Source: Betaproteobacteria bacterium | Lineage (GTDB): Bacteria > Pseudomonadota > Gammaproteobacteria > Burkholderiales > SG8-39 | Direction of reading: 5' to 3' | DNA length: 34,696 bases | NCBI GenBank assembly: GCA_005884335.1 | Contig: VBCJ01000004.1 | Coordinates: 480-35,175, forward strand | In this document: positions 2,923-30,288 of the stretch, one piece after another | Numbering within the stretch: the first letter of the stretch is position 1 | Layout of the letters: each line of letters starts with the position of its first letter | Notes under the pieces: model-generated | The model's database searches: none | Told to the model about the DNA's origin: nothing | What the model saw: only the letters and a program-made list of their open reading frames with translations | Program-made: the position numbers and the translations under genes

Positions 2923-3972
2923 ATGACGGTCGAACGCCCAGGCGCCGTGGTCCAGCCGCGTCGTCTTTCTTCCGGCGCGGAGGAGAGCGCACGTCTTTCG
3001 GCCCTGCGCAGCTATTGCGTGCTCGAAACCGGGCGCGAGGCCCGCTTCGACGACCTGACTTGCCTCGCGTCGACCATCTGCGAGACACCGGTATCCCTGG
3101 TAAGTCTGGTGGATACGAACCGTCTGTTCTTCAAATCGGCCCACGGTATGGACCTCCGCGAGGTGCCTTACCCGGATTTTTTCTGCGGCCATGCCATTCG
3201 CCAGCGCGACCTCTTCGTCGTCCGCGACGCAAACGAGGATCCGCGCTTTGCAAAGCACCCCCTGGTGGTCGATTCGCCGCGCGTGCGCTTCTACGCCGGA
3301 GCGCCTCTGGTCACGCCGGAGGATTACAGGCTGGGGACGCTGTGCGTGATCGATTTCGTTCCCCGGGAGCTGCAGCCGAAGCAGCTCGAGATGCTGCGCA
3401 TCCTCGGGCGGCAGGTGATGTGCCAGCTGGATCTGAATTTACAGGCGATGCGCGACCCGCTCACCGGCTTGTACAATCGCCGCCAGCTCGAGGAAGCCCT
3501 GCACCGCGAAGTCCTGCGCGCGCGTCGACTCGGAGGAACGGTCGGCGTCATGGCGATCGACGTGGATCATTTCAAGCGGGTCAACGACACGCTGGGCCAC
3601 GAAGTCGGCGACCGCGCCTTGAGGGGGATCGCGGAGGAATTGGCCTCCTGCGTGCGCGAGGAAGACATCGCCTGTCGGGCCGGCGGGGAGGAATTCGTCA
3701 TCATCCTTCCCGGGACGGGGAAAACGGCATTGCGCACGCGTGCGGAGGCCGTGCGCCGGACCATCGAGCGGGCGCAAATTCCCGCAGGGGACGGAACGCT
3801 CAAGCTGACCGTCTCGATAGGGCTTGCCAGCTTTCCCTCCTACGGCGATAGCGGGCAGGCCGTGCTGCGAGCCGCTGATGTGGCGCTCTACAAGGCCAAG
3901 GCAGCCGGGCGAAACCGGGTGACCCTGTGCACGCCGAGCAGCGCGCGTAGTTCGCCGGCCCAAGTCGCTTGA
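2923..3972 (+). CDS. GAF-domain sensor diguanylate cyclase (GGDEF domain, GGEEF active site)
   Basis: The N-terminal half resembles GAF (FCGHAIRQRDLFVVRDANEDPRFAKHPLV, FYAGAPLVTPEDYRLGTLCVID). The C-terminal half has RDPLTGLYNRRQLEE, DVDHFKRVNDTLGHEVGD and GGEEF. Confidence 0.9.
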   Translation: MTVERPGAVVQPRRLSSGAEESARLSALRSYCVLETGREARFDDLTCLASTICETPVSLVSLVDTNRLFFKSAHGMDLREVPYPDFFCGHAIRQRDLFVVRDANEDPRFAKHPLVVDSPRVRFYAGAPLVTPEDYRLGTLCVIDFVPRELQPKQLEMLRILGRQVMCQLDLNLQAMRDPLTGLYNRRQLEEALHREVLRARRLGGTVGVMAIDVDHFKRVNDTLGHEVGDRALRGIAEELASCVREEDIACRAGGEEFVIILPGTGKTALRTRAEAVRRTIERAQIPAGDGTLKLTVSIGLASFPSYGDSGQAVLRAADVALYKAKAAGRNRVTLCTPSSARSSPAQVA

Positions 3973-4002
3973 CAGTCTAGTTTCGAATCCCTGATACCGA
4001 AC

Positions 4003-4040
4003 GCCGCGGGTCATTGCCCCGCGGCTTTGGGTGCATTTTT
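4003..4040 (+). terminator. Putative intrinsic terminator after the diguanylate cyclase gene
   Basis: An 8-bp GC stem, gccgcggg (4003-4010) pairing with cccgcggc (4018-4025), has a 7-nt loop. It is followed by tttgggtgcattttt. It starts 31 nt after the stop codon. Confidence 0.5.
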
Positions 4041-4063
4041 GAGGCAGTCCGGAAGGCAGACCG

Positions 4064-6358
4064 ATGAGTGCGGGTTTCAAGGGCCGGCGCGAGGATCTGA
4101 GGCTGGTCACGGGGCAGGGCAAATATACGTCGGACTGGAATCTTCCCGGCCAGCTCTACGGCTCGTTCCTGCGCTCCGACCGGGCGCATGCGGAAATCGT
4201 CTCGGTCGACACAGCGCCCGCGCTGGCGTCCTCCGGCGTGGTCGCGGTGCTTACGGGCGCCGACACGGCCAGGGCCGGCTTCAAATCCACGCCGCAGCTC
4301 GCGCGCTACCCAGGCCGCGGCGGCGCGACCATCAAGGTCCCGCACCGCGATGGGCTCGCCAACGGACGCGTACGCTTTGTCGGCCAGGAAGTCGCGCTGG
4401 TAGTGGCGAAGACGGCACTCGCCGCACAGGATGCCGCCGAGAAAATCGAGGTCGAGTACCGCGATCTGCCCGCGGTGGTCGACGCGGAGGAGGCGCTCGC
4501 GCCGGGGGCCGAGCAGCTCTATCCGGAGATTCCCGGCAATCTCTGCTTCGATTACGAGTACGGTGATGAGGCGAAGACCGACGAAGCCTTTGCGCAGGCC
4601 GCTCACGTCACGCGCATCGTTCTGGACAGCCAGCGCATGGTCGGAAATCCGATGGAACCCAAGGCCTGTCTCGCCGCGTACGACGCGGAGGCCGGCCGGT
4701 ACGATCTGTATGTGAGCTCGCAAGGCCTTTCGCTCATGCGGGGAAGCGCGAGCGGCATCACCGGCATTCCCGCGGAGAAGATCGGGGTGCATGCGCACGA
4801 CGTGGGCGGAGGCTTCGGCATTCGCTCGGACGCGTATGCAGAGTACTGCGTGGCGATGCTGGCGGCGAAGACGCTCGGGAAACCCGTGAAGTGGACCTCG
4901 TCGCGCTCGGAAACCTTCGTGTCCGACTATCACGGGCGCGCGGCAAAGCTGACCGGCGAGCTTGCGCTCGACAAGGAAGGGCGTTTCCTCGCGATCCGCA
5001 TCAACTGGATCGTGAATACGGGTGCCTACCTTTCCACTCCGGGCCCGCTCATCAACACGCTGCCTCCCGGCCTTCACGCGATCAATCTTTATCGCATCCC
5101 GGTCATGTACGGCCGCCACCGGCTCGGCGTGACCAACACGACACCCACCACCGCTTACCGCGGCGCGGGCCGGCCCAACGTCTGCTATCTCGCCGAGCGG
5201 CTGGTCGAGGAGGCCGCCCGCGAGATGAAGATCGACCGCCTGGAGCTGCGCCGGCGCAACCTGATCCCGAAGGAGGCGTTCCCGTATCAGACGCCGCACC
5301 CTCATTCGGTATACGACAGCGGGGATCCGCACGGTCTGGTGGACGAAGCGGTGAAACAGGCCGAATGGAAAACCTTCGATGCGCGCCGCGCGCAGTCGAA
5401 GAAGCGCGGAAAGCTGCGCGGCATCGGCTGCGGGGTATTCATCGAGCCCGCGGGGGCGGGCGGGGCGCCGAAGGAAGAGGCGATGATCAAGTTCGGCGAA
5501 TCCGGCAATGCGCTCCTATTTGTCCTGGCCGGCCCGTCCGGACAGGGGCACGAGACGGTGTACCCGGAGGTCGTGGGCGAAGCGCTCGGCATGGATCCGG
5601 AAAAGATCACGCTACGGGCAAGCGACCCGGACGGGCCGCGCCTCGTCGGCGAGGGCACGATCGGCTCGCGCTCGATGATGGCGCACGGCGGAGCGCTCCT
5701 GGTGGCGGCGCGCGAGGTGGTTCGCAAAGGCACCGCGCTCGCCGCAAAGGACCTGGAAGTCGCGCCGGACGATCTGGAATTCGCGAAGGGCCGCTACCGC
5801 GTGAAAGGCACCGATGTCTCGATCGGAATGGAGGACCTCGCGAAGAAATACGGGAGCGCTCTCGACTCGGGCGGCGAGATCCCGCTGCCGCGCTCCTTTC
5901 CCAGCGGCGCACACGTGGCCGAGGTCGAGATCGACCCTGAGACGGGCGTCGTCGAAATCCTGCGCTACACCGCGGTGGACGATTGCGGTCGGATCATCAA
6001 TCACGTCTTGCTCGACGGCCAGTTGCACGGCGGCATCGCGCAGGGCATCGGGCAGGTCATGGGCGAGCATGCGATCTACGACCCGGCCTCGGGCCAACTT
6101 CTCAACGGCACGTTCATGGATTACGAAATGCCGCGTGCCGATGGCATGCCCGAGATCCGGCTCTACGACCGTTCGATCCCGTCGCCCGGCAATCCGCTCG
6201 GCGTAAAAGGCGCGGGCGAAGCGGGCACGACCGGCGCCGTACCGACCGTCGCGAACGCGGTGATCGACGCGCTGCGGCCGCTCGGTATCCATCACCTGGA
6301 TTTTCCCTATACGCCGGACCGCGTCTGGCACGCGATCCGGGCGACCAGAAGCCGCTGA
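4064..6358 (+). CDS. Xanthine dehydrogenase/aldehyde oxidase-family molybdopterin-binding large subunit (form-II CoxL-like)
   Basis: 764 aa. The N-terminus GRREDLRLVTGQGKYTSD is typical of CoxL. The active-site loop reads AYRGAGR (5153-5173), which is the form-II signature rather than the form-I AYxCSFR. GGAAGG lies 8 nt upstream of the ATG. Confidence 0.9.
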   Translation: MSAGFKGRREDLRLVTGQGKYTSDWNLPGQLYGSFLRSDRAHAEIVSVDTAPALASSGVVAVLTGADTARAGFKSTPQLARYPGRGGATIKVPHRDGLANGRVRFVGQEVALVVAKTALAAQDAAEKIEVEYRDLPAVVDAEEALAPGAEQLYPEIPGNLCFDYEYGDEAKTDEAFAQAAHVTRIVLDSQRMVGNPMEPKACLAAYDAEAGRYDLYVSSQGLSLMRGSASGITGIPAEKIGVHAHDVGGGFGIRSDAYAEYCVAMLAAKTLGKPVKWTSSRSETFVSDYHGRAAKLTGELALDKEGRFLAIRINWIVNTGAYLSTPGPLINTLPPGLHAINLYRIPVMYGRHRLGVTNTTPTTAYRGAGRPNVCYLAERLVEEAAREMKIDRLELRRRNLIPKEAFPYQTPHPHSVYDSGDPHGLVDEAVKQAEWKTFDARRAQSKKRGKLRGIGCGVFIEPAGAGGAPKEEAMIKFGESGNALLFVLAGPSGQGHETVYPEVVGEALGMDPEKITLRASDPDGPRLVGEGTIGSRSMMAHGGALLVAAREVVRKGTALAAKDLEVAPDDLEFAKGRYRVKGTDVSIGMEDLAKKYGSALDSGGEIPLPRSFPSGAHVAEVEIDPETGVVEILRYTAVDDCGRIINHVLLDGQLHGGIAQGIGQVMGEHAIYDPASGQLLNGTFMDYEMPRADGMPEIRLYDRSIPSPGNPLGVKGAGEAGTTGAVPTVANAVIDALRPLGIHHLDFPYTPDRVWHAIRATRSR

Positions 6359-6392: not shown

Positions 6393-7172
6393 TCAGGCGT
6401 TCTCGAGCAGGATCCGGACGACGCTCTGCGGATCGGTGATCATGCAGTCATGGCCGGTCTCGAGCTCGTAGAACCTCCAGGCCGGATCGCCGCGGAGACG
6501 CTCGGCGAACTGGTCGAACGAACCGGTGGGCGGGTTGGTACAGTGAACATAAGTGCGCGGCAGGCTCGCGCCGCCGTTCCCGGTGAAATGCACCGGCTGG
6601 GCGAAGGTGCGGTACGACTGTCGCATCTCGTGGCGCGTGACCCAGGCGACGTCCTGCGGCTCGGTCACTCCGAAAATCGCCAGCGGCAGCGGATCGACGA
6701 ATCCACCTATCTGGCCTTGATTGATCAGCGCGCGGCGATCCGGATGCAGGTAGTCGAGCAGGCATTTTCCGTTTTCGGGCAGGAAAGCATCCAGATACAC
6801 GACGCGGCGCAGTCGTGAGGCCGCTCGGTCGGCGACGCCGGTGACGACCATTCCGCCATAGCTGTGCCCGACCAGAACGACCTTGGCCAGCTCCTCGGCT
6901 TCGAGGAGATTGACGACGTCGGCGATGTGCGTGGCGAGATCGATCGCCGGGTTTGCAAGATGCGCGCGCTCGCCGAGGCCGGTCAGAGTGGGGGCGTAGA
7001 CCTCGTGTCCGGCCGCCCGCAGGGCCGGCACCACCTTCTTCCAGCACCAGCCGCCGTGCCAGGCGCCATGCACCAGCACGTAAGTGGATTTGCGCCGCGG
7101 GGCGCGGGTGCGCGAGGCCCGCTTGGCGCGATGCTTCACGATTTTCGAGCGCGGCAGGTCACTAGCGCCCAC
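6393..7172 (-). CDS. Alpha/beta hydrolase, SABP2 / methylesterase (MES)-like family
   Basis: YVLVHGAWHGGWCWKKVVPALRAAGHEV and the nucleophile elbow VGHSYGG are present. The start is uncertain. The longest ORF begins at GTG 7172 and overlaps the phoA stop by 11 nt. In-frame GTGs at 7139, 7079 and 7073 are alternatives, and 7079 would give the family-typical M-LVHGAWHG N-terminus. Confidence 0.8.
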   Translation of the reverse strand: MGASDLPRSKIVKHRAKRASRTRAPRRKSTYVLVHGAWHGGWCWKKVVPALRAAGHEVYAPTLTGLGERAHLANPAIDLATHIADVVNLLEAEELAKVVLVGHSYGGMVVTGVADRAASRLRRVVYLDAFLPENGKCLLDYLHPDRRALINQGQIGGFVDPLPLAIFGVTEPQDVAWVTRHEMRQSYRTFAQPVHFTGNGGASLPRTYVHCTNPPTGSFDQFAERLRGDPAWRFYELETGHDCMITDPQSVVRILLENA

Positions 7173-8556
7173 CGATCAGGCGGTGCAGATGGCGCCCGAA
7201 ATCGGTGTTGTCTTGATAGCCCTTGAACAGGTCCGCACCCGGCCCGATCGCGCCCACCGCCACCGGCTCCGTGGTGTGTCCCGCAGTCCCCCAGTAGAAG
7301 CCCGTCTGGCGCGCCACCATGCGCCCGAGCGCATTTTGCGTGGCGTAGCTGAAGTTCCGGTCGAGCTGGCTCTGATTCATGATCGCCTCGCGCAGGTCGG
7401 CGTCGAGCTGGAAGCCGGGAAAATGCTGCGCGATCAGCTTGTCGAGGGCTTCGGGGGACGGCTTCCGGCCCAGGCCCCTGGCCGCGGCCCCGAGCGATAT
7501 CGTGATGCGCTCGAGCATTTCCACGTTTGCGATCCCGGTGTAGACGCGGGCGTCTCCGGCGGCGCCGCGACGCGCGTAGGTCGCCGACAGGCCGCCGGTT
7601 TCGTGATCGCCGGTGACGATGACGAGCGTATCGTTCGGCGCCTTGCTGCGGAAATCGAGCGCCAGCTTCAGCGCCTCGTCGAAGGCCCACAGGGCGCGCA
7701 TCACGCCGGCGGCGTCGTTGTAGTGACCGGCGGTATCGGTATTCTCGTTTTCGACGAACAACACGAAGCCGTTCGGGCTCGCGGCCGACAGCGCATCGAG
7801 CGCCGCCTTTGCCATCTCGGCCATGGACGGTTCCTTGGCTGGGTCGCGGTCGACCTCGAAGGCCATGTCCTCGTCGGCGAACAGCCCGAGCAACTTCGCT
7901 CCCTTGGCATTCTTCAATTCGCGCGTGTCGCGCACGATCCGGTAGCCCTTCTGCGCGAATGCCGCGACCATGTCCTTGCCGTCGGCGCGCTTGCCGCCCG
8001 GTACGCTCTTCGGCAGAAAGTAATCGCGCCCGCCGCCGAGGAGCACGTCGGGCTCCATGGCGAGATACTGGTCGACGATCGACTGCGACTCCCTGCGGTC
8101 TTTGGCGTGCACGGAAAACGCCGCGGGCGAAGCGTCGTAAATTTCCGCCGTGGTCACCAGGCCTATCTTCTTGCCCGCCGATTTCGCCGCCTCCATGACC
8201 GTGCGGTGCGCCTTCCCGGCCGGCGTCATCGAGACCGCGGAATTGTCGACCTTGACGCCGGTAGACATCGCCGAGGCCGCCGCGGCGGAATCGGTGACGA
8301 ACGCGTCGAGCGGATCGGTCGAGAGCAGGCCGAAGGCCCCGTCCTTGAACACCACGTCGGTGGCGGCGAACGACTGCTTGCGCAGCACGCGCGCGGAATA
8401 CCTGCCGAGTTCCCACTGAGTGGCCGCGACGCCGTCGGCGAACAGGATGATGATGTTTTTCGGCCTTGCGGCGCCTTCGGCGCCGGCCACCCTGTCGACG
8501 CCCCAGGCGAATGTCAGCAGTACGACGACGAGCAACCAGGATCGCTGCGTTCTCAT
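7162..8556 (-). CDS. phoA: PhoA-family alkaline phosphatase, secreted
   Basis: The internal ATG at 8556 gives the signal peptide MRTQRSWLLVVVLLTFAWGVDRVAGAEG. The active-site motif TDSAAAASAMSTGVK and the metal motif TGDHETGG are present. The 601-aa ORF-track version extends upstream through the preceding gene and is rejected. Confidence 0.9.
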   Translation of the reverse strand: MRTQRSWLLVVVLLTFAWGVDRVAGAEGAARPKNIIILFADGVAATQWELGRYSARVLRKQSFAATDVVFKDGAFGLLSTDPLDAFVTDSAAAASAMSTGVKVDNSAVSMTPAGKAHRTVMEAAKSAGKKIGLVTTAEIYDASPAAFSVHAKDRRESQSIVDQYLAMEPDVLLGGGRDYFLPKSVPGGKRADGKDMVAAFAQKGYRIVRDTRELKNAKGAKLLGLFADEDMAFEVDRDPAKEPSMAEMAKAALDALSAASPNGFVLFVENENTDTAGHYNDAAGVMRALWAFDEALKLALDFRSKAPNDTLVIVTGDHETGGLSATYARRGAAGDARVYTGIANVEMLERITISLGAAARGLGRKPSPEALDKLIAQHFPGFQLDADLREAIMNQSQLDRNFSYATQNALGRMVARQTGFYWGTAGHTTEPVAVGAIGPGADLFKGYQDNTDFGRHLHRLIGGR

Positions 8557-9575
8557 AGTCCGACCTCTCTGCGCACGAGCGCGGCCCCCGCGGCGAGGGC
8601 CTTCAGCTTGCCCAGCGCGACCTCGCGCGCGAGCGGCACCATGCCGCAGTTGGTGCAAGGATAGAGCCTTTCCGGCGGCACGAATCTCATTGCCGAGCGG
8701 ATCGTCGCCGCGACTTGCTCGGGCTTCTCGACGGTGTCGTTCGCGACGTCGATGGCGCCGACGAGGACGTCCTTGCCTTTGAGAAGCGCGAGCAACTCGA
8801 GCGGAACGTGCGAACTCGCGCACTCGAGCGAGACCTGGGCGATCTTCGATCGGGCGAGCAGAGGAAAGGTGGACTCGTATTGCCGCCACTCGGAGCCGAG
8901 GGTCTTCTTCCAGTCGATGTTCGCCTTGATTCCATAGCCATAGCAGATGTGCACCGCGGTCTTGCATTTAAGGCCCGCCGCGGCCGCTTCCAGCGCCGCT
9001 ATGCCCCAGGCGGCGACTTCGTCCATGTAGACGTTGAAGGCCGGCTCGTCGAACTGGATCACGTCGGCGCCGGCCCGCTCGAGCTCGCTCGCCTCCTGGT
9101 TGAGGATCGCTGCGAATTCGCGCGCGAGCTTCTCGCGGTTGCGGTAGTGGTTGTCGTAGAGCGTGTCCACCATCGTCATCGGACCGGGGAGGGAGAGCTT
9201 GATCGGGCGCTTCGTCTGCCCCCGGAGGAAGCGAAGGTCCTCGACGAACACCGGTTTGCCGCGCCCCACGGGTCCCACCACCACCGGCACGTCCGCGTCG
9301 TAGCGATTGCGGATGCGCACGGTGCGCCTGTGCTCGAAATCGACGCCCTTCAAGCTCTCGATGAACGTCGTAACGAAGTGCCTTCGTGTCTGCTCGCCGT
9401 CTGTGACGATATCGATGCCTGCGGCTTCCTGGTCGGCGAGCAGCAGGCGCATGGCATCGCGCTTGCCTTCCTCGAGGAGATCCCCTTCGAGGAGCCACGG
9501 CGCCCAGAGCTTTTTCGGCTCGGCGAGCCAGCCCGGCTTGGGAAGACTGCCGGCGATGGTAGTTTGCAGCAGCAA
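8553..9575 (-). CDS. Short (core) cobalamin-independent methionine synthase-family protein (Meth_synt_2-like), 340 aa
   Basis: The TTG start gives (M)LLQTTIAGSLPKPGWL, typical of about 340-aa single-barrel MetE homologues. Zn motifs AVHICYGYG and PCTNCGM are present. Its stop overlaps the phoA ATG as ATGA (8553-8556). Confidence 0.8.
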   Translation of the reverse strand: MLLQTTIAGSLPKPGWLAEPKKLWAPWLLEGDLLEEGKRDAMRLLLADQEAAGIDIVTDGEQTRRHFVTTFIESLKGVDFEHRRTVRIRNRYDADVPVVVGPVGRGKPVFVEDLRFLRGQTKRPIKLSLPGPMTMVDTLYDNHYRNREKLAREFAAILNQEASELERAGADVIQFDEPAFNVYMDEVAAWGIAALEAAAAGLKCKTAVHICYGYGIKANIDWKKTLGSEWRQYESTFPLLARSKIAQVSLECASSHVPLELLALLKGKDVLVGAIDVANDTVEKPEQVAATIRSAMRFVPPERLYPCTNCGMVPLAREVALGKLKALAAGAALVRREVGL

Positions 9576-9579
9576 GGGC

Positions 9580-10416
9580 CTACGCGCGCGAAGCGACGTC
9601 CCACGAAGCGAAGCCGCAGCCGACGTACACCTCGGGACAGTTGCAGTAGCCGATCAGCTCGAAGCCACGCTTGCCTGCGGCACCGTGTGCCGCGACCCAA
9701 TTGCGGATCTCGGCCGCGCCGTTACCGATGGTGGGCAGGCGCTCGTTCAGGAAGTCGATCAAAGGGCGCTCGTCGCCCTTCTCGAAGTGGCGGATGCATT
9801 CCCGGTCGAACGGCTCGTCGATTTCGCCCATCGTGGGCTCCCCGATCGAGTGGCTCAGGCCCCCGGTGGCGAGGAGCGCCACGCGGATGTCTTCGGGGTA
9901 GGTGCGCACGGCTTCGGCGAGCATCGTTCCCCATTGCAGGCAGCGCCGCACGCTCGGATACGGCGGCTCCAGATCGTTGATGATGATGGGGACGATGGGC
10001 GGCAGCGGGTCGAGCCCGCCCCTCCACAGCGGAATGCAGAAGCCGTGGTCGAGTGTCAGGTGGTGCGACACCGAGGGCTCGAAGTCGCGCTCGAGCGCGG
10101 TTTGCAGGATGTGATTCGCGAGCTTCGGATGTCCGGCGATCTTCTTGAAGGGGCAGTCCTTCATCCACGGCTCGGCGGGGCCTTCGTGCTCCTCGCCCAT
10201 GCCGACGCAGATGCTCGGAAGGTTGTTGATGAAGAAATTCACCCAGTGGTCGGGGGCGATCTCGATCAGCACGTCGGGCTTGGCGGCCTTGATGCGTCTG
10301 CCGAGCTCGGTCAGCGAGCTCGTGAGTTCCCGCTGATTCGCCGGTTTGACGTCTTTCCAGCCGCGGATGATGAGCGGGGCATGACTCGAGGCGAACACTC
10401 CGGCCAGCTTAGCCAT
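9580..10416 (-). CDS. Class III extradiol dioxygenase beta (LigB-type catalytic) subunit, 278 aa
   Basis: MAKLAGVFASSHAPLI, IAPDHWVNFF and ATGGLSHSIG are present. It lies directly downstream of a LigA-like small subunit gene and overlaps it by 8 nt. Confidence 0.85.
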   Translation of the reverse strand: MAKLAGVFASSHAPLIIRGWKDVKPANQRELTSSLTELGRRIKAAKPDVLIEIAPDHWVNFFINNLPSICVGMGEEHEGPAEPWMKDCPFKKIAGHPKLANHILQTALERDFEPSVSHHLTLDHGFCIPLWRGGLDPLPPIVPIIINDLEPPYPSVRRCLQWGTMLAEAVRTYPEDIRVALLATGGLSHSIGEPTMGEIDEPFDRECIRHFEKGDERPLIDFLNERLPTIGNGAAEIRNWVAAHGAAGKRGFELIGYCNCPEVYVGCGFASWDVASRA

Positions 10417-10690
10417 GGCTCGATCTCGCCGCGGCGTCGGCCCCGGCGGTTCTCACTTTTTTCAGGAAATCCGCTTCGGACATTCCGGAGACCACGAAAT
10501 AGAACCGGAGCAGGTAAGGGTTGACTCGCGACGCGAGGAAGGCTACGTCGTCGCGCTCGACCGCGGTCCGCACTTCGGGCTTCAGCGGATAGCGGTCGAG
10601 AATCTTCTTCCGGTTGGCGCGGTACTCGTCGCCGAGCACCGGGGAGCTCTGAAGATCGAAGAAGAGCTTGCTCAGCCAATAGTCTCTCAT
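10409..10690 (-). CDS. LigA-like small (alpha) subunit of a LigAB-type extradiol dioxygenase, 93 aa
   Basis: The small protein MRDYWLSKLFFDLQSSPVLGDEYRANRKKILDRYPLKPEVRTAVERDDVAFLASRVNPYLLRFYF matches the LigA / aromatic-ring-opening dioxygenase small-subunit pattern. It sits immediately 5' of the LigB gene. Confidence 0.75.
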   Translation of the reverse strand: MRDYWLSKLFFDLQSSPVLGDEYRANRKKILDRYPLKPEVRTAVERDDVAFLASRVNPYLLRFYFVVSGMSEADFLKKVRTAGADAAARSSHG

Positions 10691-10716
10691 GGCGCTATTT
10701 TGCCATGAGCGCGGCG

Positions 10717-11460
10717 CTACTGTTTCGTCCCCCGATCCCGGGTGAGAGGCACGAACCTCACCGGCAGGGTGCGCCTCGTCGTCGTGCGGCCGTCGGATTG
10801 TTTTTCCACGAGCAGGAGATGCTGCACGTCCGATGATCCGCCCACCGGGATCACCATTCGTCCGCCGGGCTTGAGCTGGTCGATCAGCGGCTGCGGTACC
10901 GCCGCGGGCGCCGCTGTGACGATGATGGCGTCGAAGGGCGCGGCGGCGGGCCAGCCTCCGTAGCCGTCGCCGATGCGCACGTCGACGTTCCGGTAACCCA
11001 GCTCGCCGAGAAGCTGCAACGCCCGTTTTCCGAGCGGCGCGACGATCTCGATCGTGTAGACTTTCGCGACGAGTTCAGCGAGCACCGCCGCCTGGTAACC
11101 CGAGCCCGTTCCGACCTCGAGCACGGTATCCGTCGGCTTGGGATCGAGCAAATCGGTCATCAGCGCGACGATGTAGGGCTGCGAGATCGTCTGGCCCTCG
11201 CCGATCGGCAGCGGGCGATTCTCGTAGGCGAGATTGTCCTGCGAGGCGGGGACGAAGCGGTGGCGCGGGACTTTCCCCATGGCCGCCATCACCGCGTCGC
11301 TGAATATCGGTCGCCCGGTTTCAGCGCCGGTTTCACGCGCCATCGCGGCTATTTCCGCGACCATTCGCGCGCGGGCCGCTGCGCGCTGATCCTGGGCGTC
11401 AGAGGGTTGGGAGTGGGTCACTGCGAGCAGGAAAAGCGCGGAGAGCAGGACGGCCGGCAT
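10717..11460 (-). CDS. pcm: Protein-L-isoaspartate(D-aspartate) O-methyltransferase family protein with hydrophobic N-terminal extension
   Basis: VPRHRFVP, GEGQTISQPYIVALMTDLL and the SAM motif VLEVGTGSGYQAAVLA are present. The N-terminus MPAVLLSALFLLAVTHSQPSDAQ looks like a signal or anchor. An alternative internal start at 11364 (MVAEIAAM) would give a canonical cytoplasmic protein. Confidence 0.85.
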   Translation of the reverse strand: MPAVLLSALFLLAVTHSQPSDAQDQRAAARARMVAEIAAMARETGAETGRPIFSDAVMAAMGKVPRHRFVPASQDNLAYENRPLPIGEGQTISQPYIVALMTDLLDPKPTDTVLEVGTGSGYQAAVLAELVAKVYTIEIVAPLGKRALQLLGELGYRNVDVRIGDGYGGWPAAAPFDAIIVTAAPAAVPQPLIDQLKPGGRMVIPVGGSSDVQHLLLVEKQSDGRTTTRRTLPVRFVPLTRDRGTKQ

Positions 11461-11473
11461 GGCGCGCCCGAGT

Positions 11474-12169
11474 TCAGGCGACCACCAGGGTGGTCAGGCG
11501 CTGCGGATCGGCAAGCAGATCCGCGCTCGGACCGCTGTAGGCGATGCGGCCGCGGTTGAGCACGAGCGCGCTTTGCGTGACTCCGAGTGCAACTTTGGCG
11601 TGCTGCTCGACCAGCACGACCGCAAGCGAGTCCTCGTTGATCAGGCGCTGCAAGGCCTGGAGCAGGACCTCGACGATGATGGGCGCGAGCCCTTCGAGAG
11701 GCTCGTCCATGAGCAGCAAGGTCGGGTTGCCCATCAGCGCTCGCCCGATCGCGAGCATCTGCTGCTCGCCGCCCGAGATCTGGTTGCCCCAGTGCCCGCG
11801 CCGCTCGGCGAGCTTCGGAAAGAGATCGTAGACGCGTGCCAGCGTCCAGCGGCCGGGGCGCGTGGCGACGGTGAGGTTCTCCTCGACCGAGAGGGAAGGG
11901 AAGATGTCGCGCGTCTGCGGCACGAGGCCCACGCCCAGCCGGCAGCGTTCGTAGACGGGCAGCCCCGCGATCGGCTTGCCTTGGTATTCGATGCTTCCCG
12001 CGTGAAAAGTCGTGTGACCCATGATGGTCGCGAGGAGCGTAGTCTTGCCGACGCCGTTCCGTCCCAGTACCGCAAGGGCGCCGCGCTCCGGCAGCTCGAA
12101 CGCGATGTCTTCGAGGACCACGGTTTCGCCGTAACCGGCGCGCACGTCGCGCAGGCTGAGCTCAGCCAT
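11474..12169 (-). CDS. livF: Branched-chain amino acid (HAAT-family) ABC transporter ATP-binding protein LivF-type
   Basis: MAELSLRDVRAGYG, Walker A GRNGVGKTT, signature ISGGEQQML and LLLMDEP are present. It overlaps the livG stop by 8 nt. Confidence 0.9.
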   Translation of the reverse strand: MAELSLRDVRAGYGETVVLEDIAFELPERGALAVLGRNGVGKTTLLATIMGHTTFHAGSIEYQGKPIAGLPVYERCRLGVGLVPQTRDIFPSLSVEENLTVATRPGRWTLARVYDLFPKLAERRGHWGNQISGGEQQMLAIGRALMGNPTLLLMDEPLEGLAPIIVEVLLQALQRLINEDSLAVVLVEQHAKVALGVTQSALVLNRGRIAYSGPSADLLADPQRLTTLVVA

Positions 12170-12917
12170 GATGCTGCTCTCCGAGATAAACCTGATGCAC
12201 CCGCCGGTCTTTTGCGATCTCCTCCGGCGGCCCCTCGACCAGCACCTCGCCCTGCACCATGACGGTGATGCGCCGCGCGAAGCGAAACACGAGGTCCATG
12301 TCGTGCTCGATGATCAGGATGGCAATATGCTTGGGCAGATTGTCGAGCACTTGCAGGATGCGATGCGATTCGAGCGAGGGCACGCCCGCTGCCGGCTCGT
12401 CGAGCAGCAGAACGCGCGGTTTCAGCCCGAGCGCGATCGCGATCTCGACGAGGCGCTGCTTGCCGTAGGGCAGGTCGACGATGCGAACGCTCGCGTCCTC
12501 GGCGAGCCCGAGCGTGGCGAGCAGGTCCATGCTCTCGGCGCACACATCGGCATGTGTGCTTGCCGCACGCAGCATGCGCCGCGCGACGCCGCGGCGCTCC
12601 GCCACCGCCAGCGCCACGTTGTCGATCACGGCGAGGCGGCGGAACAGCGCATTGATCTGGAAGGTCCGGCCGAGCCCGCGCTTCACCCGCTTCGCCTGTC
12701 CCATGGCGGTGATGTCCTCCCCGCCCAGCACGATCCTGCCGGAGGACGGCGGCAGCGCCCCGGTGAGCATGTTGACGAAGGTGGTTTTTCCGGCGCCGTT
12801 CGGACCGATCAAGGCATGGCGTGCGCCGGTCTCCAGCCGGAAATTGATGTCGTCCGCCACGGTGAGCGCGCCGAAGCTCTTGCACAAGCCGCGCGTTTCG
12901 AGAGCGGCGGCGCTCAC
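12162..12917 (-). CDS. livG: HAAT-family ABC transporter ATP-binding protein LivG-type
   Basis: The GTG at 12917 gives VSAAALETRGLCKSFGALTV, Walker A GPNGAGKTT and LLLDEPAAG. The GTG overlaps the livM stop as GTGA. The 563-aa ORF-track version is a spurious upstream extension. Confidence 0.88.
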   Translation of the reverse strand: MSAAALETRGLCKSFGALTVADDINFRLETGARHALIGPNGAGKTTFVNMLTGALPPSSGRIVLGGEDITAMGQAKRVKRGLGRTFQINALFRRLAVIDNVALAVAERRGVARRMLRAASTHADVCAESMDLLATLGLAEDASVRIVDLPYGKQRLVEIAIALGLKPRVLLLDEPAAGVPSLESHRILQVLDNLPKHIAILIIEHDMDLVFRFARRITVMVQGEVLVEGPPEEIAKDRRVHQVYLGEQHHG

Positions 12918-13798
12918 GGCCTGCCCCGCAGTTTCACGAGCGCCCCATCGAGGATGCCGAGGATACCACCGCGGGCGAACATCACCACGAGCACGAGCAT
13001 CGTCCCGATGCCGAAGTACCAGTACTCCGGAAATTGCTTGGCGAGAAAATCCTGCGCGATCAGATACACGACCGGCCCGACGAACGCGCCGTAGATGCGT
13101 CCGACTCCGCCCAGGATCAGCATCACCAGCAGCTCGCCGGCGGACTCGAAGGAGAGCACGTTCAGCCCGACGAACTGATTGGTCTGGGTGATCAGGCCTC
13201 CGGCGGCACCGGCGATCGTGGCCGAGAGCGTGTAGACCAGCACCAGGCGCCAATAGACCGGCGCGCCGATCGCGTGCATGCGCAGGCTGTTTTCGCGCAC
13301 CCCGGTGAGCGAAGTCCCGAACGGCGAATAGATCATTTTTCTCACCAGCCACCATCCGAGGAGCAGCACGAGAAGGCAATAGAGATAAGCGGTCTTGCCG
13401 AAGATATCGAACCTGAACAAGCCCAGAATGGGCGCAACGACGACGCCGGAAAGGCCGTCCGCGCCACCGGTGAGCGTGGTTGCCTTGTTGGCGATCTCCA
13501 GAAGAACGGAGGCCGCGCCGAGCTGCACCACTGGATCGCCGATTCCCGCTTTCGCGGCGAGGATCCCCGCGACGTAGGCGCCCAGGCCGAAATAGGCGCT
13601 GTGGCCGAGCGTGATGATTCCCGCATACCCGACGATCAGATCGAGCGACAGGGCGTAGAGAATGTAGATCAGGATTCGCGCCCCGAGGGAAAGATACTCG
13701 GGCAGCGCGAAGAAGGCCACGATGGCGACGATCCACGGAAGGGACTCGATCCAGCGGATGCGGGGATCCGCGCTGTAGCCTCCTGCGTGGGCGCTCAC
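12914..13798 (-). CDS. livM: HAAT-family ABC transporter permease LivM-type
   Basis: The GTG at 13798 gives VSAHAGGYSADPRIRWIESLPWIVAIVAFFALPEYLS. The protein is hydrophobic and multi-spanning, with LDLIVGYAGIITLGHSAYFGLGAY. It overlaps the livH stop as GTGA. Confidence 0.85.
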   Translation of the reverse strand: MSAHAGGYSADPRIRWIESLPWIVAIVAFFALPEYLSLGARILIYILYALSLDLIVGYAGIITLGHSAYFGLGAYVAGILAAKAGIGDPVVQLGAASVLLEIANKATTLTGGADGLSGVVVAPILGLFRFDIFGKTAYLYCLLVLLLGWWLVRKMIYSPFGTSLTGVRENSLRMHAIGAPVYWRLVLVYTLSATIAGAAGGLITQTNQFVGLNVLSFESAGELLVMLILGGVGRIYGAFVGPVVYLIAQDFLAKQFPEYWYFGIGTMLVLVVMFARGGILGILDGALVKLRGRP

Positions 13799-14670
13799 GC
13801 GTGCCGCCCGAACAGCCCGGAGGGCCGCCACAGCAGGATAGCGATCGTGGCAACGTAGATGGGGAAAGCGCCGTATTGCGGCAGCCAATACTTGCAAGCG
13901 GTGTCGGCGATTCCGATCAGGAGCGCCGCGACGAACGGCCCGCGCAGGCTTCCCAGGCCTCCCACCGAGACCACGACCAGAAAATACACGAGGTTTTCGA
14001 ACGGATAGGAAGGCTGGATCGCGATGATCTCCGCGCCGAGCCCGCCGCCGAGTCCCGCGAGTCCGCTGCCGAGCGCGAAGGTGAGCGTGAACAGGCGCTT
14101 GGTGTTGATTCCGACCGACTGCGCCATGGCGCGGTTGTCCACCGTGGCGCGTACCATGGCCCCCCAGCGCGTGCGCTCGACGCCGAACCACAAGAGCGCC
14201 ACCATGACCGCGCTGAAGACGATGATGAACACCCGGTAAGCCGGGAAATCGCGGCCGAGGAGCGGAAACTGGCCCTTCAGATAATCGGGCAGCGCGACCG
14301 GCTGCTGCAGCGTTCCGTAGATGAAGCGCGCGACGGCGACCGCGATGAAGATCAGGCCGATGGTGAAGAGCACCTGCTCGAGGTCGCTCGCTGCATAGAG
14401 TCTCGAGTACAGGAGCCGCTCGAGGACCACGCTGGCGGCCGCAACAAAAGCGAAGGCGAGCACGAGCGCCAGCGGAAAGGGCACGCCGAAGCGCGAGATC
14501 GCAGTGGTCAGGACGTAACCGCCCGCCATGGCGAACACTCCATGCGCGAGGTTGGCGAAGCCCATCAGGCCCATGGTGACCGACAAGCCGACCGAGATCA
14601 CGTACAGGATCATGCCCAGGGCGGCGCCGTGAAAGGCGACGCTGACGAGCGATGCGAAGAAAGCCTCCAA
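13795..14670 (-). CDS. livH: HAAT-family ABC transporter permease LivH-type
   Basis: The TTG start at 14670 is preceded by GGGAGGG 4 nt upstream. The sequence (M)EAFFASLVSVAFHGAALGMILYVISVGLSVTMGLMGFANLAHGVF is typical of LivH. Confidence 0.88.
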   Translation of the reverse strand: MEAFFASLVSVAFHGAALGMILYVISVGLSVTMGLMGFANLAHGVFAMAGGYVLTTAISRFGVPFPLALVLAFAFVAAASVVLERLLYSRLYAASDLEQVLFTIGLIFIAVAVARFIYGTLQQPVALPDYLKGQFPLLGRDFPAYRVFIIVFSAVMVALLWFGVERTRWGAMVRATVDNRAMAQSVGINTKRLFTLTFALGSGLAGLGGGLGAEIIAIQPSYPFENLVYFLVVVSVGGLGSLRGPFVAALLIGIADTACKYWLPQYGAFPIYVATIAILLWRPSGLFGRHA

Positions 14671-14691
14671 ACGTCCCTCCCGGGTTTGCGG

Positions 14692-15657
14692 CTAATCCAC
14701 CTTGACGCCGACGTCTCTCACCAGCTTTCCGTACTTCTCGTAATCGCGCCGGATCAAGGCCGCGAATTCCGCAGCCGTGGTCACGTAGGCCTCGAGTCCC
14801 CCCGCGGCGTTGAGCCTGCTCCTTGTTTCAGTCTCGGCGAGCACCTTGTTGACCTCGGCGTGGAGCTTGGCGAGCACGGCTTCGGGCGTTCCTGCGGCCG
14901 CAAACAAGCCCAGCCAGATCGTGACCTCGTAGCCGGGGTAGAACTCGGAAATGGTCGGCAAGTCGGGAAAGAGCGCCGAGCGCTGCGAGCCCGTCACCGC
15001 AAGGGCACGCAGCCTGCCCGCCTTGATCTGAGGAGCGCTCGAGGTGCCGGAAAACATCGCGGCCACCTCGCCTGCGACGGTTGCCGTTGCGGCAGGAGTG
15101 CCACCCTTGTAAGGCACGTGTATGAGGTCGATGCTCGCGCGCTGCTTGAGCATTTCCATGGCCAGCTGGTGGATGCTGCCGTTGCCCCCCGAGGCGTACG
15201 CGAGCGGCGGGCGGGCTTGGCGCGCGTGCTCGACGAATTCTCTGAAATTCTTGACCGGAACGGAAGGGTTGACGGACAGCACCCATTGATTCGATACGAC
15301 CGATGCAACCGGCGCAAGGTCTTTGAGGGGATCCGTCTGCATCTCCTTGTACAAATGCGGGTTGATGGTGATCATGCTGTCGGCGAGCAGCGCCAGCGTG
15401 TAGCCATCGGGGGTGGAGTTTGCGACGAGATCCATCGCGATGTTGCCGTTCGAGCCCGGTCGGTTTTCCACGACCACCGGCTGGCCGGCCCACTCGGAGA
15501 GCCGCTGTCCGATGACCCGCGCCGAAATATCGGGTGCGCCCCCCGGCGGAATCGGCACGATCAGCTTGATCGGCCGCAATGGGTATTGCGCCCACGAAGC
15601 GACCGAGAACAAGGCCGCGAATGCGAGCGCAGTGAAACGCCTGGGAGCTGTCCTCAT
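14692..15657 (-). CDS. Bug/TctC-family tripartite tricarboxylate transporter substrate-binding protein, full length with signal peptide
   Basis: The signal peptide is MRTAPRRFTALAFAALFSVASWAQ. Bug hallmarks are present: PIKLIVPIPPGGAPDISARVIGQRL, VVVENRPGSNGNIA and VPYKGGTPAATA. Its stop lies 21 nt upstream of the livH start. Confidence 0.9.
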   Translation of the reverse strand: MRTAPRRFTALAFAALFSVASWAQYPLRPIKLIVPIPPGGAPDISARVIGQRLSEWAGQPVVVENRPGSNGNIAMDLVANSTPDGYTLALLADSMITINPHLYKEMQTDPLKDLAPVASVVSNQWVLSVNPSVPVKNFREFVEHARQARPPLAYASGGNGSIHQLAMEMLKQRASIDLIHVPYKGGTPAATATVAGEVAAMFSGTSSAPQIKAGRLRALAVTGSQRSALFPDLPTISEFYPGYEVTIWLGLFAAAGTPEAVLAKLHAEVNKVLAETETRSRLNAAGGLEAYVTTAAEFAALIRRDYEKYGKLVRDVGVKVD

Positions 15658-15716
15658 GCTGTCTCCTCAATGTCCAGCCTGCGATGCTATGATATTCGAC
15701 GCCCCGGTAAAACGAC

Positions 15717-16922
15717 ATGTTCCTCGAACATCGCCTAGAACGGCTGATCGCGAAGCTCAGACGGACCGCAGCCATCCCGCTGCGCCTCGAGCTGTGGAAC
15801 GGCCGCGCCTACGATCTCGCCAGCGAGCCCAAGGTGAAAATCGGCGTGACTAGCCCGTCGGCCCTTCGCTTCCTGGTGTCCCCCGACCTGATGAAGCTCG
15901 GCAAGGCCTACGTGGAAGGTTACCTGCGAGTCGAAGGGCCGATCCTGGAGGTGTTCCGGGTGGCGGAAAGCTTCGCTCGAGGCGCCGCTTCCGGCGGGCG
16001 CAAAGGATTGCGGCGTGTTTGGCGCCACAACCGCAAGCGCGATCGCGACGCCATTCAGTACCACTACGACGTCTCGAACGACTTCTATTCGCTGTGGCTG
16101 GATCGGAACATGGTGTATTCCTGCGCCTATTTCCGGAGCGAGAGCGATTCCCTGGAGCTCGCTCAGGAGCAAAAGCTCGATCACATCCTCAACAAGCTTC
16201 TGGTCCAGCCGGGCGAGCGGTTTCTGGACATCGGCTGCGGCTGGGGTGCGCTCGTCCTTCGCGCGGCGAAGAAATACGGCGCCCGGGCGACCGGCGTCAC
16301 GCTCAGCCGAAACCAGTACGAATTTGCCTCGCAGCGGATTCGGGAGGAGGGGCTCGAGGGCCGCTGCGAGGTGCGCCTGCAGGACTATCGCGATGTTTCG
16401 GGCGAGGGTGTTTTCGACAAGATCGCGAGCGTCGGCATGTTCGAGCATGTGGGTCTGCGCCATCTCAAGGCCTATTTCGCGAAAATCCGCTCGCTGCTGG
16501 CCGAGGGCGGGCTCGTCATGAATCACGGCATCACCGCGAGCGATCCCGATAATCGCTGGGTGGGGCTGGGTGCGGGGCAATTCATCAACCACTACGTGTT
16601 CCCTCATGGGGAGCTCCCGCATCTTTCACTCGTGCTTCGCGAGATGGCGCGCGCGGGACTCGAGGTTGCGGACGCCGAGTCGCTGCGGCGTCATTACGCG
16701 CGTACTTGCCTCGAGTGGGCCAAGCGCCTGGAACAAAACCGGGAGCAGGCGATCGCGGCCGCAGGGGACAAGCGTTACCGCATCTGGCAGATCTATCTCG
16801 CCGGCTGCGCGCACGGCTTCGAAAACGAGTGGATTAACGTCTACCAGGTGCTCGCCCGGAAGGAAGGCGCAGCGTCCAATCCGCTGCCGCTCACCCGTGA
16901 TTACATGTATCGCGCGGGCTGA
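15717..16922 (+). CDS. cfa: Cyclopropane-fatty-acyl-phospholipid synthase family SAM-dependent methyltransferase
   Basis: IQYHYDVSNDFYSLWLDRNMVYSCAYF, the SAM motif LDIGCGWGAL and SVGMFEHVG are present. Confidence 0.9.
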   Translation: MFLEHRLERLIAKLRRTAAIPLRLELWNGRAYDLASEPKVKIGVTSPSALRFLVSPDLMKLGKAYVEGYLRVEGPILEVFRVAESFARGAASGGRKGLRRVWRHNRKRDRDAIQYHYDVSNDFYSLWLDRNMVYSCAYFRSESDSLELAQEQKLDHILNKLLVQPGERFLDIGCGWGALVLRAAKKYGARATGVTLSRNQYEFASQRIREEGLEGRCEVRLQDYRDVSGEGVFDKIASVGMFEHVGLRHLKAYFAKIRSLLAEGGLVMNHGITASDPDNRWVGLGAGQFINHYVFPHGELPHLSLVLREMARAGLEVADAESLRRHYARTCLEWAKRLEQNREQAIAAAGDKRYRIWQIYLAGCAHGFENEWINVYQVLARKEGAASNPLPLTRDYMYRAG

Positions 16923-16940: not shown

Positions 16941-17483
16941 TCAGTGAAGCGCGGCGGACCCCCGGGTGCGGAGCAGTTTGTCGATCGCCTCGCGCACCGC
17001 CTCCAAGTGCGGGTTGACGCGCAGCGCGGCGTCGAAGGCGAAGAGCGCACTGTCGGTATCTCCGAGCGAGAGGCAGATTTGCGCGAAACCGCAGATCGCG
17101 CCGTAGTGGCGGGGCTCGAGCTCCAGCGTGCGGTGGATGTTGATCACGCTTTCCTCGTCCCTGCTTTGCATGTAATAGAGCGTGGCACGCTTGTTCCAGG
17201 CTTCGGCGAAATCCGGGTGAGTGGCGACGAGCCTCGCCAGGATGCCCTCGGCCGCCGGGAAATCGAGTGCGGTGAGGGCGCGTGTCGCCCGCTCCAGGTC
17301 GAACGCCGCCGCGGAATCCCGGTAGGCCATCCACAGCCTCCAGATCTCGTCTTCGATGCGCTCGGCGCGTCCGCCGCTCGCGTCGCCGAGCGAGCGGAAC
17401 AAGCCGTCCAGGCGTTCGGGCAGCCGTGGCGAAGGGCGCCGCCGGTCGCCCGTGACGATCAATTTGAGCGTGTCTGCGTACAT
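16941..17483 (-). CDS. Tetratricopeptide-repeat (TPR) protein, 180 aa
   Basis: TPR-like helices are present (HPDFAEAWNKRATLYYMQSRDEESVINIHRTLELEPRHYGAICGFAQICLSLGDTDSALFAFDAALRVNP). The ATG lies 1 nt after the dnaE2 TGA (TGAtATG). Confidence 0.75.
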   Translation of the reverse strand: MYADTLKLIVTGDRRRPSPRLPERLDGLFRSLGDASGGRAERIEDEIWRLWMAYRDSAAAFDLERATRALTALDFPAAEGILARLVATHPDFAEAWNKRATLYYMQSRDEESVINIHRTLELEPRHYGAICGFAQICLSLGDTDSALFAFDAALRVNPHLEAVREAIDKLLRTRGSAALH

Positions 17484-17484
17484 A

Positions 17485-20568: not shown

Positions 20569-20572
20569 GGCT

Positions 20573-22646: not shown

Positions 22647-22673
22647 GGAATCGCGCCTGCGGGAAAGCGAGCG

Positions 22674-26105: not shown

Positions 26106-26108
26106 GGT

Positions 26109-27730: not shown

Positions 27731-27797
27731 CGAATCGGTCAGGAACGTCGGGCTTGACTACGCTCGTATAATAAACGCTAAACCACAGGATCAGCAG

Positions 27798-30265: not shown

Positions 30266-30275
30266 CAACGACCAG

Positions 30276-30281
30276 TATAAT
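30276..30281 (+). promoter_or_regulatory. Putative -10 element (TATAAT) in the 23-bp GNAT/aldolase divergent spacer
   Basis: A perfect TATAAT ends 7 nt before the ATG at 30289, with no Shine-Dalgarno. This geometry fits a leaderless transcript. Confidence 0.4.
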
Positions 30282-30288
30282 TGTTGTC

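Follow-up and report, generated by a model that had tools for sequence, protein, structure and literature searches.

What holds together a run of genes for an importer, a ring-cleaving dioxygenase, a methionine synthase-like protein, a phosphatase and an esterase, and do they serve one pathway? The question is raised by a stretch of 34,696 nucleotides (hereafter the window) from a Betaproteobacteria bacterium (contig VBCJ01000004.1, positions 480 to 35,175), in which eleven open reading frames (ORFs) follow one another on the minus strand from position 15657 down to 6393. Comparison with related genomes demonstrated that the constant core of this array consists of the permeases and ATPases of a HAAT-type importer, the LigA/LigB extradiol dioxygenase and a MesD protein, while Bug, PIMT, the phosphatase and the esterase are dispensable add-ons at the ends of the core or, for the PIMT gene (pcm), between its blocks. 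The reading we favour, with confidence somewhat better than even, is a lineage-specific, probably polycistronic mosaic operon of uncultured soil Burkholderiales and not an eleven-step pathway. The combination of genes is not a described pathway, as an initial annotation made from the sequence alone had remarked, although most of it is mosaic; each component is of a known family. The eleven genes of that annotation, with their strand, coordinates and junction distances, were reproduced exactly, each of its family labels was correct by profile searches, and no internal stops were read in the ORFs. The genes are listed from upstream to downstream, together with two intervals to which the text returns.

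15658-15716, no strand: divergent intergenic region of 59 nt between the bug start and the cfa start (sequence read)
14692-15657, minus: Bug/TctC-family periplasmic binding protein with signal peptide (bug; Pfam TctC, 234.6 bits)
13795-14670, minus: HAAT-family ABC permease, LivH/UrtB-like (BPD_transp_2, 132.7 bits; UrtB, 193 bits, below cut-off)
12914-13798, minus: HAAT-family ABC permease, LivM/UrtC-like (BPD_transp_2; GTG start overlaps the livH stop in GTGA)
12162-12917, minus: ABC ATPase, LivG/UrtD-like (Pfam ABC_tran and BCA_ABC_TP_C; UrtD, 204 bits)
11474-12169, minus: ABC ATPase, LivF/UrtE-like (ABC_tran)
10717-11460, minus: protein-L-isoaspartate O-methyltransferase (PIMT; pcm) with a hydrophobic N-terminal extension of ~45 residues (NF001453, 238.9 against a cut-off of 188)
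10409-10690, minus: LigA-like small subunit, 93 residues (PF07746, 20.6 bits, under the gathering score of 25.3)
9580-10416, minus: LigB-type class III extradiol dioxygenase catalytic subunit (PF02900, 115.9 bits)
9573-9582, minus: junction of the ligB stop (TAG) and the mesD start (TTG), with a 4-nt spacer and no Shine-Dalgarno motif (sequence)
8553-9575, minus: MesD-family core (folate-independent) methionine synthase (NF006589, 591 bits against a cut-off of 392)
7162-8556, minus: PhoA-type alkaline phosphatase, predicted secreted (Pfam Alk_phosphatase, 276.8 bits; signal peptide MRTQRSWLLVVVLLTFAWG...)
6393-7172, minus: SABP2/hydroxynitrile-lyase-family alpha/beta hydrolase, esterase-like (Abhydrolase_6, 87.7 bits)

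The ligA-ligB-mesD block

MesD has been described as the fourth family of folate-independent "core" methionine synthases, which requires oxygen and MesX (DUF1852) and neither 5-methyltetrahydrofolate nor cobalamin; neither its methyl donor nor the reaction of MesX had been established, MesD homologues above ~55% identity nearly always adjoin DUF1852, and 395 of the 399 proteomes with MesD also contain MesX (PMC7857596). No later paper settling the methyl donor or the MesX reaction was found in a literature search. The window protein is 340 residues long, with PF01717 (Meth_synt_2, 108 bits) spanning residues 4-327 and no N-terminal folate-binding domain. It matched PDB entry 3RPD, the MesD of Shewanella sp. 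W3-18-1 (PMC7857596), over its full length at about 70% identity (E = 4e-159, 532 bits), and the MesD of Acinetobacter baumannii at 70.6% identity (435 bits, tblastn). The published operational threshold for MesD is set against ACIAD3523, at 390 BLASTp bits or about 55% identity (PMC7857596); the window protein exceeds this level in its matches to the A. baumannii MesD and to 3RPD, and its phmmer score was below the stricter 560-bit threshold of that paper.

Alignment of 84 MesD sequences, made up of canonical (three), stand-alone and LigAB-linked members, found S10, E61, D176, H209, C211, Y212, Y214, E251, C307 and C310 to be invariant, where the roles of residues (Zn, the Ser/Glu/Asp for homocysteine and the MesD-specific Tyr) were taken from PMC7857596 and from knowledge of MetE. 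Because the Zn and homocysteine ligand positions are invariant throughout this set, the most fitting reading of the window protein is a methyltransferase that acts on homocysteine, in other words a methionine synthase. What had been annotated as a short MetE-like protein, a Zn-dependent alkyl transferase, is a MesD-family methionine synthase, 70% identical to 3RPD. The clade of the window protein forms a sister group to the canonical MesDs, with 69-74% identity to them as against 87-88% among the canonical sequences themselves; internally the clade is 74-99% identical, and nine positions separate it from canonical MesD.

With respect to MesX, tblastn with two query proteins (73% identical to each other) gave no match in the window or in 80 genome loci (L002-L081), which were taken from species-representative genomes with 10-kb flanks around the MesD homologue. 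The adjacency to DUF1852 (PF08908) by which MesD is defined is accordingly absent from the window. The canonical mesX gene was located 21-26 nt upstream of mesD both in a Sinorhizobium plasmid (L082) and in an Acinetobacter record (L083); MesX itself had no PDB relative by sequence. As judged from these loci, there is a large MesD sister clade without a mesX neighbour, contrary to the near-universal adjacency that has been reported. The clade was sampled in 80 species-level genomes and extends to thousands of metagenome proteins from uncultured soil Burkholderiales. On the Sinorhizobium medicae plasmid, three cobalamin riboswitches (1355-1966, 6845-7057) flank LysR-mesX-mesD, which fits B12-repressed expression of a B12-independent route. 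Near mesD of the window's clade no cobalamin riboswitch was found (window and four stand-alone loci scanned), and the same sequences gave no other riboswitch or RNA element.

Within the lineage of the window, LigAB stands in the mesX position, and mesD is very probably coupled to ligB, as the junction sequences suggest. TTG is the start codon of 21 of the 24 LigAB-linked mesD genes, where it lies 4-10 nt beyond the ligB stop or overlaps with it, and one of the 24 has a Shine-Dalgarno-like motif. Stand-alone mesD genes start with ATG in 52 of 57 cases and carry such a motif (GGAG, GAGG or AGGA at the proper distance) in 28 of 57. Since the linked genes combine a TTG start with a missing Shine-Dalgarno motif, synthesis of MesD in the LigAB lineage is very probably dependent on translation of LigB, and MesD would be made by termination-reinitiation coupled to that translation. 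A protein in which LigB residues 1-194 are joined to MesD from about residue 22 (P0067) was considered as a LigB/Meth_synt_2 fusion and rejected; it lacks the homocysteine-binding Ser and probably arose by deletion or by chimeric assembly.

Alignment of LigB to 1B4U_B and 3WKU showed that it keeps the equivalents of the iron ligands His12, His61 and Glu242 and of the catalytic His195; columns H12, H57, H189 and E236 are invariant and kept in 14 homologues. The protein is 81-99% identical within the lineage, is under purifying selection and, from its residues, looks active. Its scores are below all NCBIfam equivalog cut-offs (NF009912, 96.7 against 837; NF009904, 102.6 against 412; NF009910, 94.8 against 291), and it was assigned to none of protocatechuate 4,5-dioxygenase, gallate dioxygenase or MhpB. 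The 93-residue ORF upstream of ligB is plausibly LigA. Its AlphaFold2 model is all-helical (pLDDT 81), and Foldseek returned DesB gallate dioxygenase (TMq 0.51) and LigA (1BOU_A, TMq 0.45), both at E > 1 and hence not significant; DesB has a C-terminal LigA-like domain. No PDB sequence match was obtained for the ORF, either with the single sequence or with a 9-sequence profile. It is always found just upstream of ligB, at 66-86% identity, and the 8-nt overlap is kept in most loci, among them L084, L085 and L089; in L086/L087 it lies 41 nt upstream. These more distant ligA-ligB pairs (L084-L087 and L089, 66-80% identical) adjoin genes for amidohydrolases, formamidase, a kynurenine-formamidase-like cyclase and Amidohydro_2, and also RidA, Mo-hydroxylase genes, cupins and TctC. 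Such neighbourhoods hint that the substrates of the ligAB subfamily may be catechol analogues of N-substituted or heteroaromatic type.

The importer and the variable genes

The window encodes two BPD_transp_2 permeases together with LivG-like and LivF-like ATPases, which is the composition of a HAAT importer. The closest NCBIfam models for the four genes are UrtBCDE and not LivHMGF, all under their cut-offs, and the livH-like permease is 86-97% identical across syntenic loci (tblastn). No Peripla_BP_6 binding protein was found by tblastn in the whole window, while five relatives carry its gene directly upstream of livH:

L009, 3508-4719: Peripla_BP_6 gene
L023, 3545-4753: Peripla_BP_6 gene
L035, 1567-2796: Peripla_BP_6 gene
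L025, ~3362-4480: Peripla_BP_6 gene
L007, 3-596: Peripla_BP_6 gene

The matching site in the window is the 21-nt gap between bug and livH (14671-14691). Peripla_BP_6 is missing from the window and at least eight other loci, where the importer is without a cognate binding protein in cis, and in most of the genomes that lack it a TctC-family (TTT-type) Bug gene directly precedes livH. The membrane subunits TctA and TctB had no match among the window ORFs scanned, and the TTT transporter set is thus represented by TctC only. The best PDB matches of the bug product were Bug27, BugE and a terephthalate-binding protein; these are unspecific, and a ligand for Bug based on them was rejected. The Peripla_BP_6 proteins of the relatives matched PDB entries 4EY3/4EYG/4EYK (E = 1.7e-115), 4F06 (1.2e-103) and 4EVS (7e-102), which we take to be Rhodopseudomonas palustris binding proteins for benzoate derivatives. 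These proteins have reportedly been crystallised with 4-hydroxybenzoate, vanillate or protocatechuate. Since the gene upstream of livH in relatives matches binding proteins for benzoate derivatives, assignment of the importer to the aromatic-acid type is supported. One such protein, RPA0985, binds 4-hydroxybenzoate (PMC3223731, PMC6079105).

Conservation was assessed in 26 loci with ligA-ligB-mesD, all of one lineage and from metagenome-assembled genomes of soil and groundwater Burkholderiales. Presence and absence were scored by mapping the eleven array proteins with tblastn, by annotating inserted genes with Pfam and from the gene calls supplied with the collection; all-against-all clustering of the stop-to-stop ORFs that surround stand-alone mesD, and a GC3-based gene caller, were misled by shadow ORFs (65% G+C) and set aside. 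Wherever the contig reaches, livHMGF-ligA-ligB-mesD is constant across these syntenic loci and the rest varies:

bug: present in the window, L005, L006, L009, L010, L015, L016, L020 and L023; absent from L008, L019, L025 and L035
pcm, between livF and ligA: present in most loci; missing from L007 and L094-L096
Slot after mesD (before the convergent xdh), phoA and hydrolase: the window only
Slot after mesD, hydrolase alone, directly after mesD: L002, L003, L005, L006, L010
Slot after mesD, PafA-type phosphatase (PF01663) and hydrolase: L004, L007
Slot after mesD, PafA-type phosphatase alone: L008, L009, L021, L023
Slot after mesD, PF01663 (Phosphodiest) phosphatase, not compared with PafA: L091/L092
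Slot after mesD, phoA alone: L018; phoA is also carried by L011 and L013, where the contigs end
Slot after mesD, nothing: L014, L019, L020, L094-L096
Slot after mesD, Amidohydro_2, a canonical LigB (282 bits) and a LigC-like GFO_IDH_MocA/OxRdtase_C oxidoreductase: L016, 9203-12381
Slot after mesD, TonB-dependent receptor: L025

The hydrolase is absent from L008, L009, L014 and L018-L023. In L088 the order ABC-pcm-ligA-ligB-mesD-hydrolase is intact and the downstream flank is different. The insertion in L016 looks like part of a protocatechuate 4,5-cleavage pathway. In two annotated loci with a stand-alone mesD (L027, L047), the gene adjoins a divergent 2-hydroxyacid dehydrogenase and a sugar-type ABC system.

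Of the variable members, PIMT scores 209 bits to PCMT and passes the NCBIfam pimt equivalog cut-offs (NF001453, as listed; TIGR00080, 204.6 against 159). Its N-terminus (MPAVLLSALFLLAV...) carries a hydrophobic extension that is atypical and a possible signal peptide. The best full-length PDB match of the hydrolase was 1Y7H (SABP2, 68 bits). Its start, which the initial annotation had left open, is best placed at the long position, GTG at 7172 (11-nt overlap), because similarity to six relatives (tblastn) sets in as early as residue 3-5. Signal peptides are present in PhoA and Bug and absent from LigAB, MesD and the esterase. As PhoA and Bug carry them, and PIMT possibly does, these proteins would be in a different compartment from LigAB and MesD, and we infer that PhoA, Bug and possibly PIMT are periplasmic, optional passengers. 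Two families of secreted phosphatase, PhoA (PF00245) and PafA-like (PF01663), share the one slot a few nucleotides downstream of mesD, where the phosphatase genes have no promoter space of their own:

Window, 7162-8556: phosphatase after mesD
L004, 6374-8059: phosphatase after mesD
L008, 11091-12788: phosphatase after mesD
L009, 11023-12687: phosphatase after mesD
L091, 8530-10182: phosphatase after mesD

Junctions and neighbouring genes in the window

The ten junctions of the array, from bug to the hydrolase, measure 21, -4 (GTGA), -4 (GTGA), -8, 13, 26, -8, 4, -4 (ATGA) and -11 nt, negative values being overlaps. Upstream of the array, the 59 nt between the bug and cfa starts (15658-15716) are the sole non-coding sequence in which a promoter could lie. 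The bug ATG follows a strong Shine-Dalgarno motif, GAGGAG, and a promoter scan found nothing sigma-70-like above shuffled background. Six terminator-like hairpins were seen against 5.9 expected from shuffles and none lay at a junction, so the array holds no terminator signal above shuffled background; nor does it contain a regulator gene, and on both counts our results bear out the initial annotation. The array genes are co-directional and almost certainly co-transcribed. Same-strand junctions elsewhere in the window are of the same kind: TPR/DnaE2 1 nt, DnaE2/ImuB 4 nt, ImuA/LexA 27 nt, LexA/unknown -4 nt, TatD/HolB -4 nt, HolB/Tmk 3 nt and Tmk/MltG -4 nt. The array as such does not stand out in this genome.

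A second string in which a LigB family member stands beside a Meth_synt_2 family member was found near the start of the window:

76-531, plus: TctC, C-terminal part
534-1541, plus: LigB-like protein
1558-2721, plus: Meth_synt_2 protein (PRK06520, PDB 1YPX/YxjG type)

This pair (534-2721) is 23-30% identical to the first, its Meth_synt_2 protein being 23% identical to MesD. The string (76-2721) is about 6 kb from the first one, in the array, and its junctions of 2 and 16 nt are kept in L091-L096, where a RidA gene lies ahead. In L089 a Meth_synt_2 gene whose product is 49% identical to the second type occurs with TctC, a flavin hydroxylase and LigB, beside TctC-ligA-ligB.

The remaining genes of the window touch on the array in lesser ways. 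The cyclopropane-fatty-acyl-phospholipid synthase gene cfa (15717-16922, plus) is divergent from the array, with the 59 nt between the two starts. In Escherichia coli, cfa and pcm, like the gene for alkaline phosphatase, belong to stationary phase or starvation, and shared stress regulation of the three is conceivable. An SOS mutagenesis cassette, lexA-imuA-imuB-dnaE2 (16941-23273, minus), has a TPR protein gene 1 nt downstream, and a 148-residue ORF without assigned function shares 4 nt with the lexA start. At 30256-33304 (plus) a fused class II aldolase (MtnB-like)-SDR gene overlaps by 17 nt a gene for an IF-2B/MtnA-like isomerase; these may be methionine salvage genes, about 20 kb from mesD. 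An ORF at 27489-28784 (plus), divergent from mltG, has a weak GCV_T folate-binding aminomethyltransferase domain (53 bits) and could be YgfZ-like; the O-demethylases LigM and DesA share a superfamily with GCV_T.

Readings of the array and comparison with known systems

If the core acts as its families suggest, the importer would take up lignin-type hydroxy- and methoxybenzoates, LigAB would open a catecholic ring using O2, and MesD would methylate homocysteine to methionine. More speculatively, the methyl group might come from a methoxy-aromatic, its direct transfer by MesD leaving a catechol for LigAB; alternatively, a methyl ester from ring cleavage of a methoxycatechol might donate the methyl group, which would echo the oxygen requirement of MesD/MesX. 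By either route LigAB would supply the O2-dependent step that MesX supplies canonically. A functional link between LigAB and MesD is what we infer, and not what the data show. In its fullest form, which we think rather unlikely, LigAB would have replaced MesX as an O2-dependent enzyme kept in fixed ratio with MesD by the coupling, making or unmasking the methyl donor from imported methoxylated lignin monomers for methionine synthesis independent of folate and B12, and LigB/Meth_synt_2 would be a recurrent two-enzyme module. Candidate routes are demethylation of vanillate or 3-O-methylgallate with LigAB removing the catechol, or passage of the methyl group from the methyl ester of methoxycatechol cleavage to homocysteine. 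In favour of a link is that the LigB and Meth_synt_2 families co-localise again, in the second window pair and in L089.

A number of observations weigh against it. No residue position among the 84 sequences separates LigAB-linked from stand-alone MesD, and MesD is therefore not visibly adapted to LigAB. There are 57 MesD genes (74-79% identical) which stand alone, mostly with their own ATG and about half with a Shine-Dalgarno motif, and ligAB homologues of 66-80% identity occur in unrelated contexts without MesD. The window has neither the cognate Peripla_BP_6 binding protein nor downstream meta-cleavage genes. MesX could be encoded elsewhere in these genomes, and LigB has no detectable homology to it (an hhalign probability of 0.3%, on which a MesX-LigB relationship was rejected). 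The core may have been kept by common descent and not by selection, as the unrelated flanks, cfa and the gene for a xanthine-dehydrogenase-type Mo subunit (xdh), are syntenic in the lineage too. Tight junctions are usual throughout the window, also between functionally unrelated genes, and packing alone is therefore no argument for one pathway.

A rival reading is that the juxtaposition is incidental, with functionally independent modules co-transcribed through tight packing and a housekeeping mesD that has drifted into translational dependence on ligB. The equally tight junctions between unrelated window genes (mltG-tmk-holB-tatD, dnaE2-TPR), the separate occurrence of LigAB and MesD outside the lineage, the lack of a discriminating residue and the variation of accessory genes between relatives all agree with such an origin. 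Yet a housekeeping gene would in this case have lost both its ATG (TTG in 21/24) and its ribosome-binding site (a Shine-Dalgarno-like motif in 1/24) across the clade, and the block persists in L088 beside a different flank. The LigB and Meth_synt_2 families have few copies per genome, and two independent pairs within 9 kb, with a third co-localisation in L089, are unlikely for families of low copy number. Incidental juxtaposition is thus a credible explanation to which we give less than even weight, and on the whole we doubt it.

That all eleven genes make up one unit for the uptake and catabolism of a single unspecified aromatic that carries methyl and/or phosphate groups, in which PIMT, esterase and MetE-like protein handle the methyl group and PhoA the phosphate, was the proposal of the initial annotation and seems to us improbable. 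Co-directionality and tight junctions speak for it, as do a related binding protein of aromatic-acid type, the intact LigB active site, the presence of a phosphatase directly after mesD in about 12 of ~26 relatives (PhoA in 3, PafA or PF01663 in 8) and an esterase that travels with the block in L088. Against it, PIMT passes a protein-repair equivalog cut-off and is deleted in four relatives; PhoA is found in only 3 of ~26, the esterase is absent in about half and Bug in four. Signal peptides mark PhoA and Bug as secreted and are lacking from LigAB, MesD and the esterase. The MetE-like protein has 70% identity to a genuine methionine synthase, whose homocysteine-binding residues it keeps, and genes of a downstream ring-cleavage pathway are not present. 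The eleven-gene set was not a unit in independent genomes, where only livHMGF-ligAB-mesD was constant, and that in one lineage. The annotation had itself held that blocks occurring only separately in other genomes would tell against a single unit, and outside the lineage this is the pattern observed, with 57 lone mesD genes and ligAB in unrelated contexts. What survives of the uptake-plus-catabolism idea is the aromatic-acid importer, the intact LigB site and the tight ligAB-mesD arrangement; its extension to all eleven genes as one pathway does not, and nothing points to a phosphorylated substrate.

For the mosaic operon that we favour, the coupling of LigAB and MesD makes the question of the MesD methyl source experimentally approachable, and the routes above provide candidates for an alternative source. 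If these were true, there would be a direct connection between lignin-monomer turnover and methionine synthesis. Should LigAB and MesD prove functionally unconnected, the lesson is one of caution, since tight overlapping junctions in this genome would then not define pathways.

With regard to known systems, the mltG-tmk-holB-tatD housekeeping operon of the same window (24313-27730) is likewise co-directional; stop and start codons overlap in it, and its genes are biochemically unrelated. That cluster is conserved across many proteobacteria, whereas the array is limited to one lineage and has a variable periphery. The HAAT importers for lignin-derived benzoates in R. palustris (HbaE/RPA0668, RPA0985 and RPD_1586-type) share with the window the four-gene architecture of permeases and ATPases; in contrast to them, the window and at least eight relatives are without the Peripla_BP_6 gene and mostly have a TctC-family gene before livH. 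LigAB (1B4U/1BOU) and DesB (3WKU) of Sphingobium sp. SYK-6 share with the window, where the small subunit is a putative one, the two-gene arrangement of small subunit and LigB subunit and the place beside an aromatic-acid importer, and the window LigB keeps their Fe(II) ligands and catalytic His. Its similarity is low (93.6 bits to 1B4U_B, 80.2 bits to 3WKU_A), the small subunit is only weakly LigA-like and no ligC, ligI, ligJ or ligK follows ligAB.

The closest parallel is the MesD/MesX system (Price, Deutschbauer & Arkin 2021, PMC7857596). The window MesD is likewise a core Meth_synt_2 protein of ~340 residues without a folate-binding domain, is 70% identical to the MesD of Shewanella (3RPD), Acinetobacter and Sinorhizobium, and has identical Zn and homocysteine ligands and MesD-specific Tyr. 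In both systems the gene just ahead of mesD, on the same strand, encodes an enzyme that uses O2. In the window, however, this gene encodes the LigAB dioxygenase, with neither DUF1852 nor a flavin reductase as a neighbour, and where the canonical mesX and mesD are separated by 21-26 nt, the mesD of the window is apparently translationally coupled to ligB.

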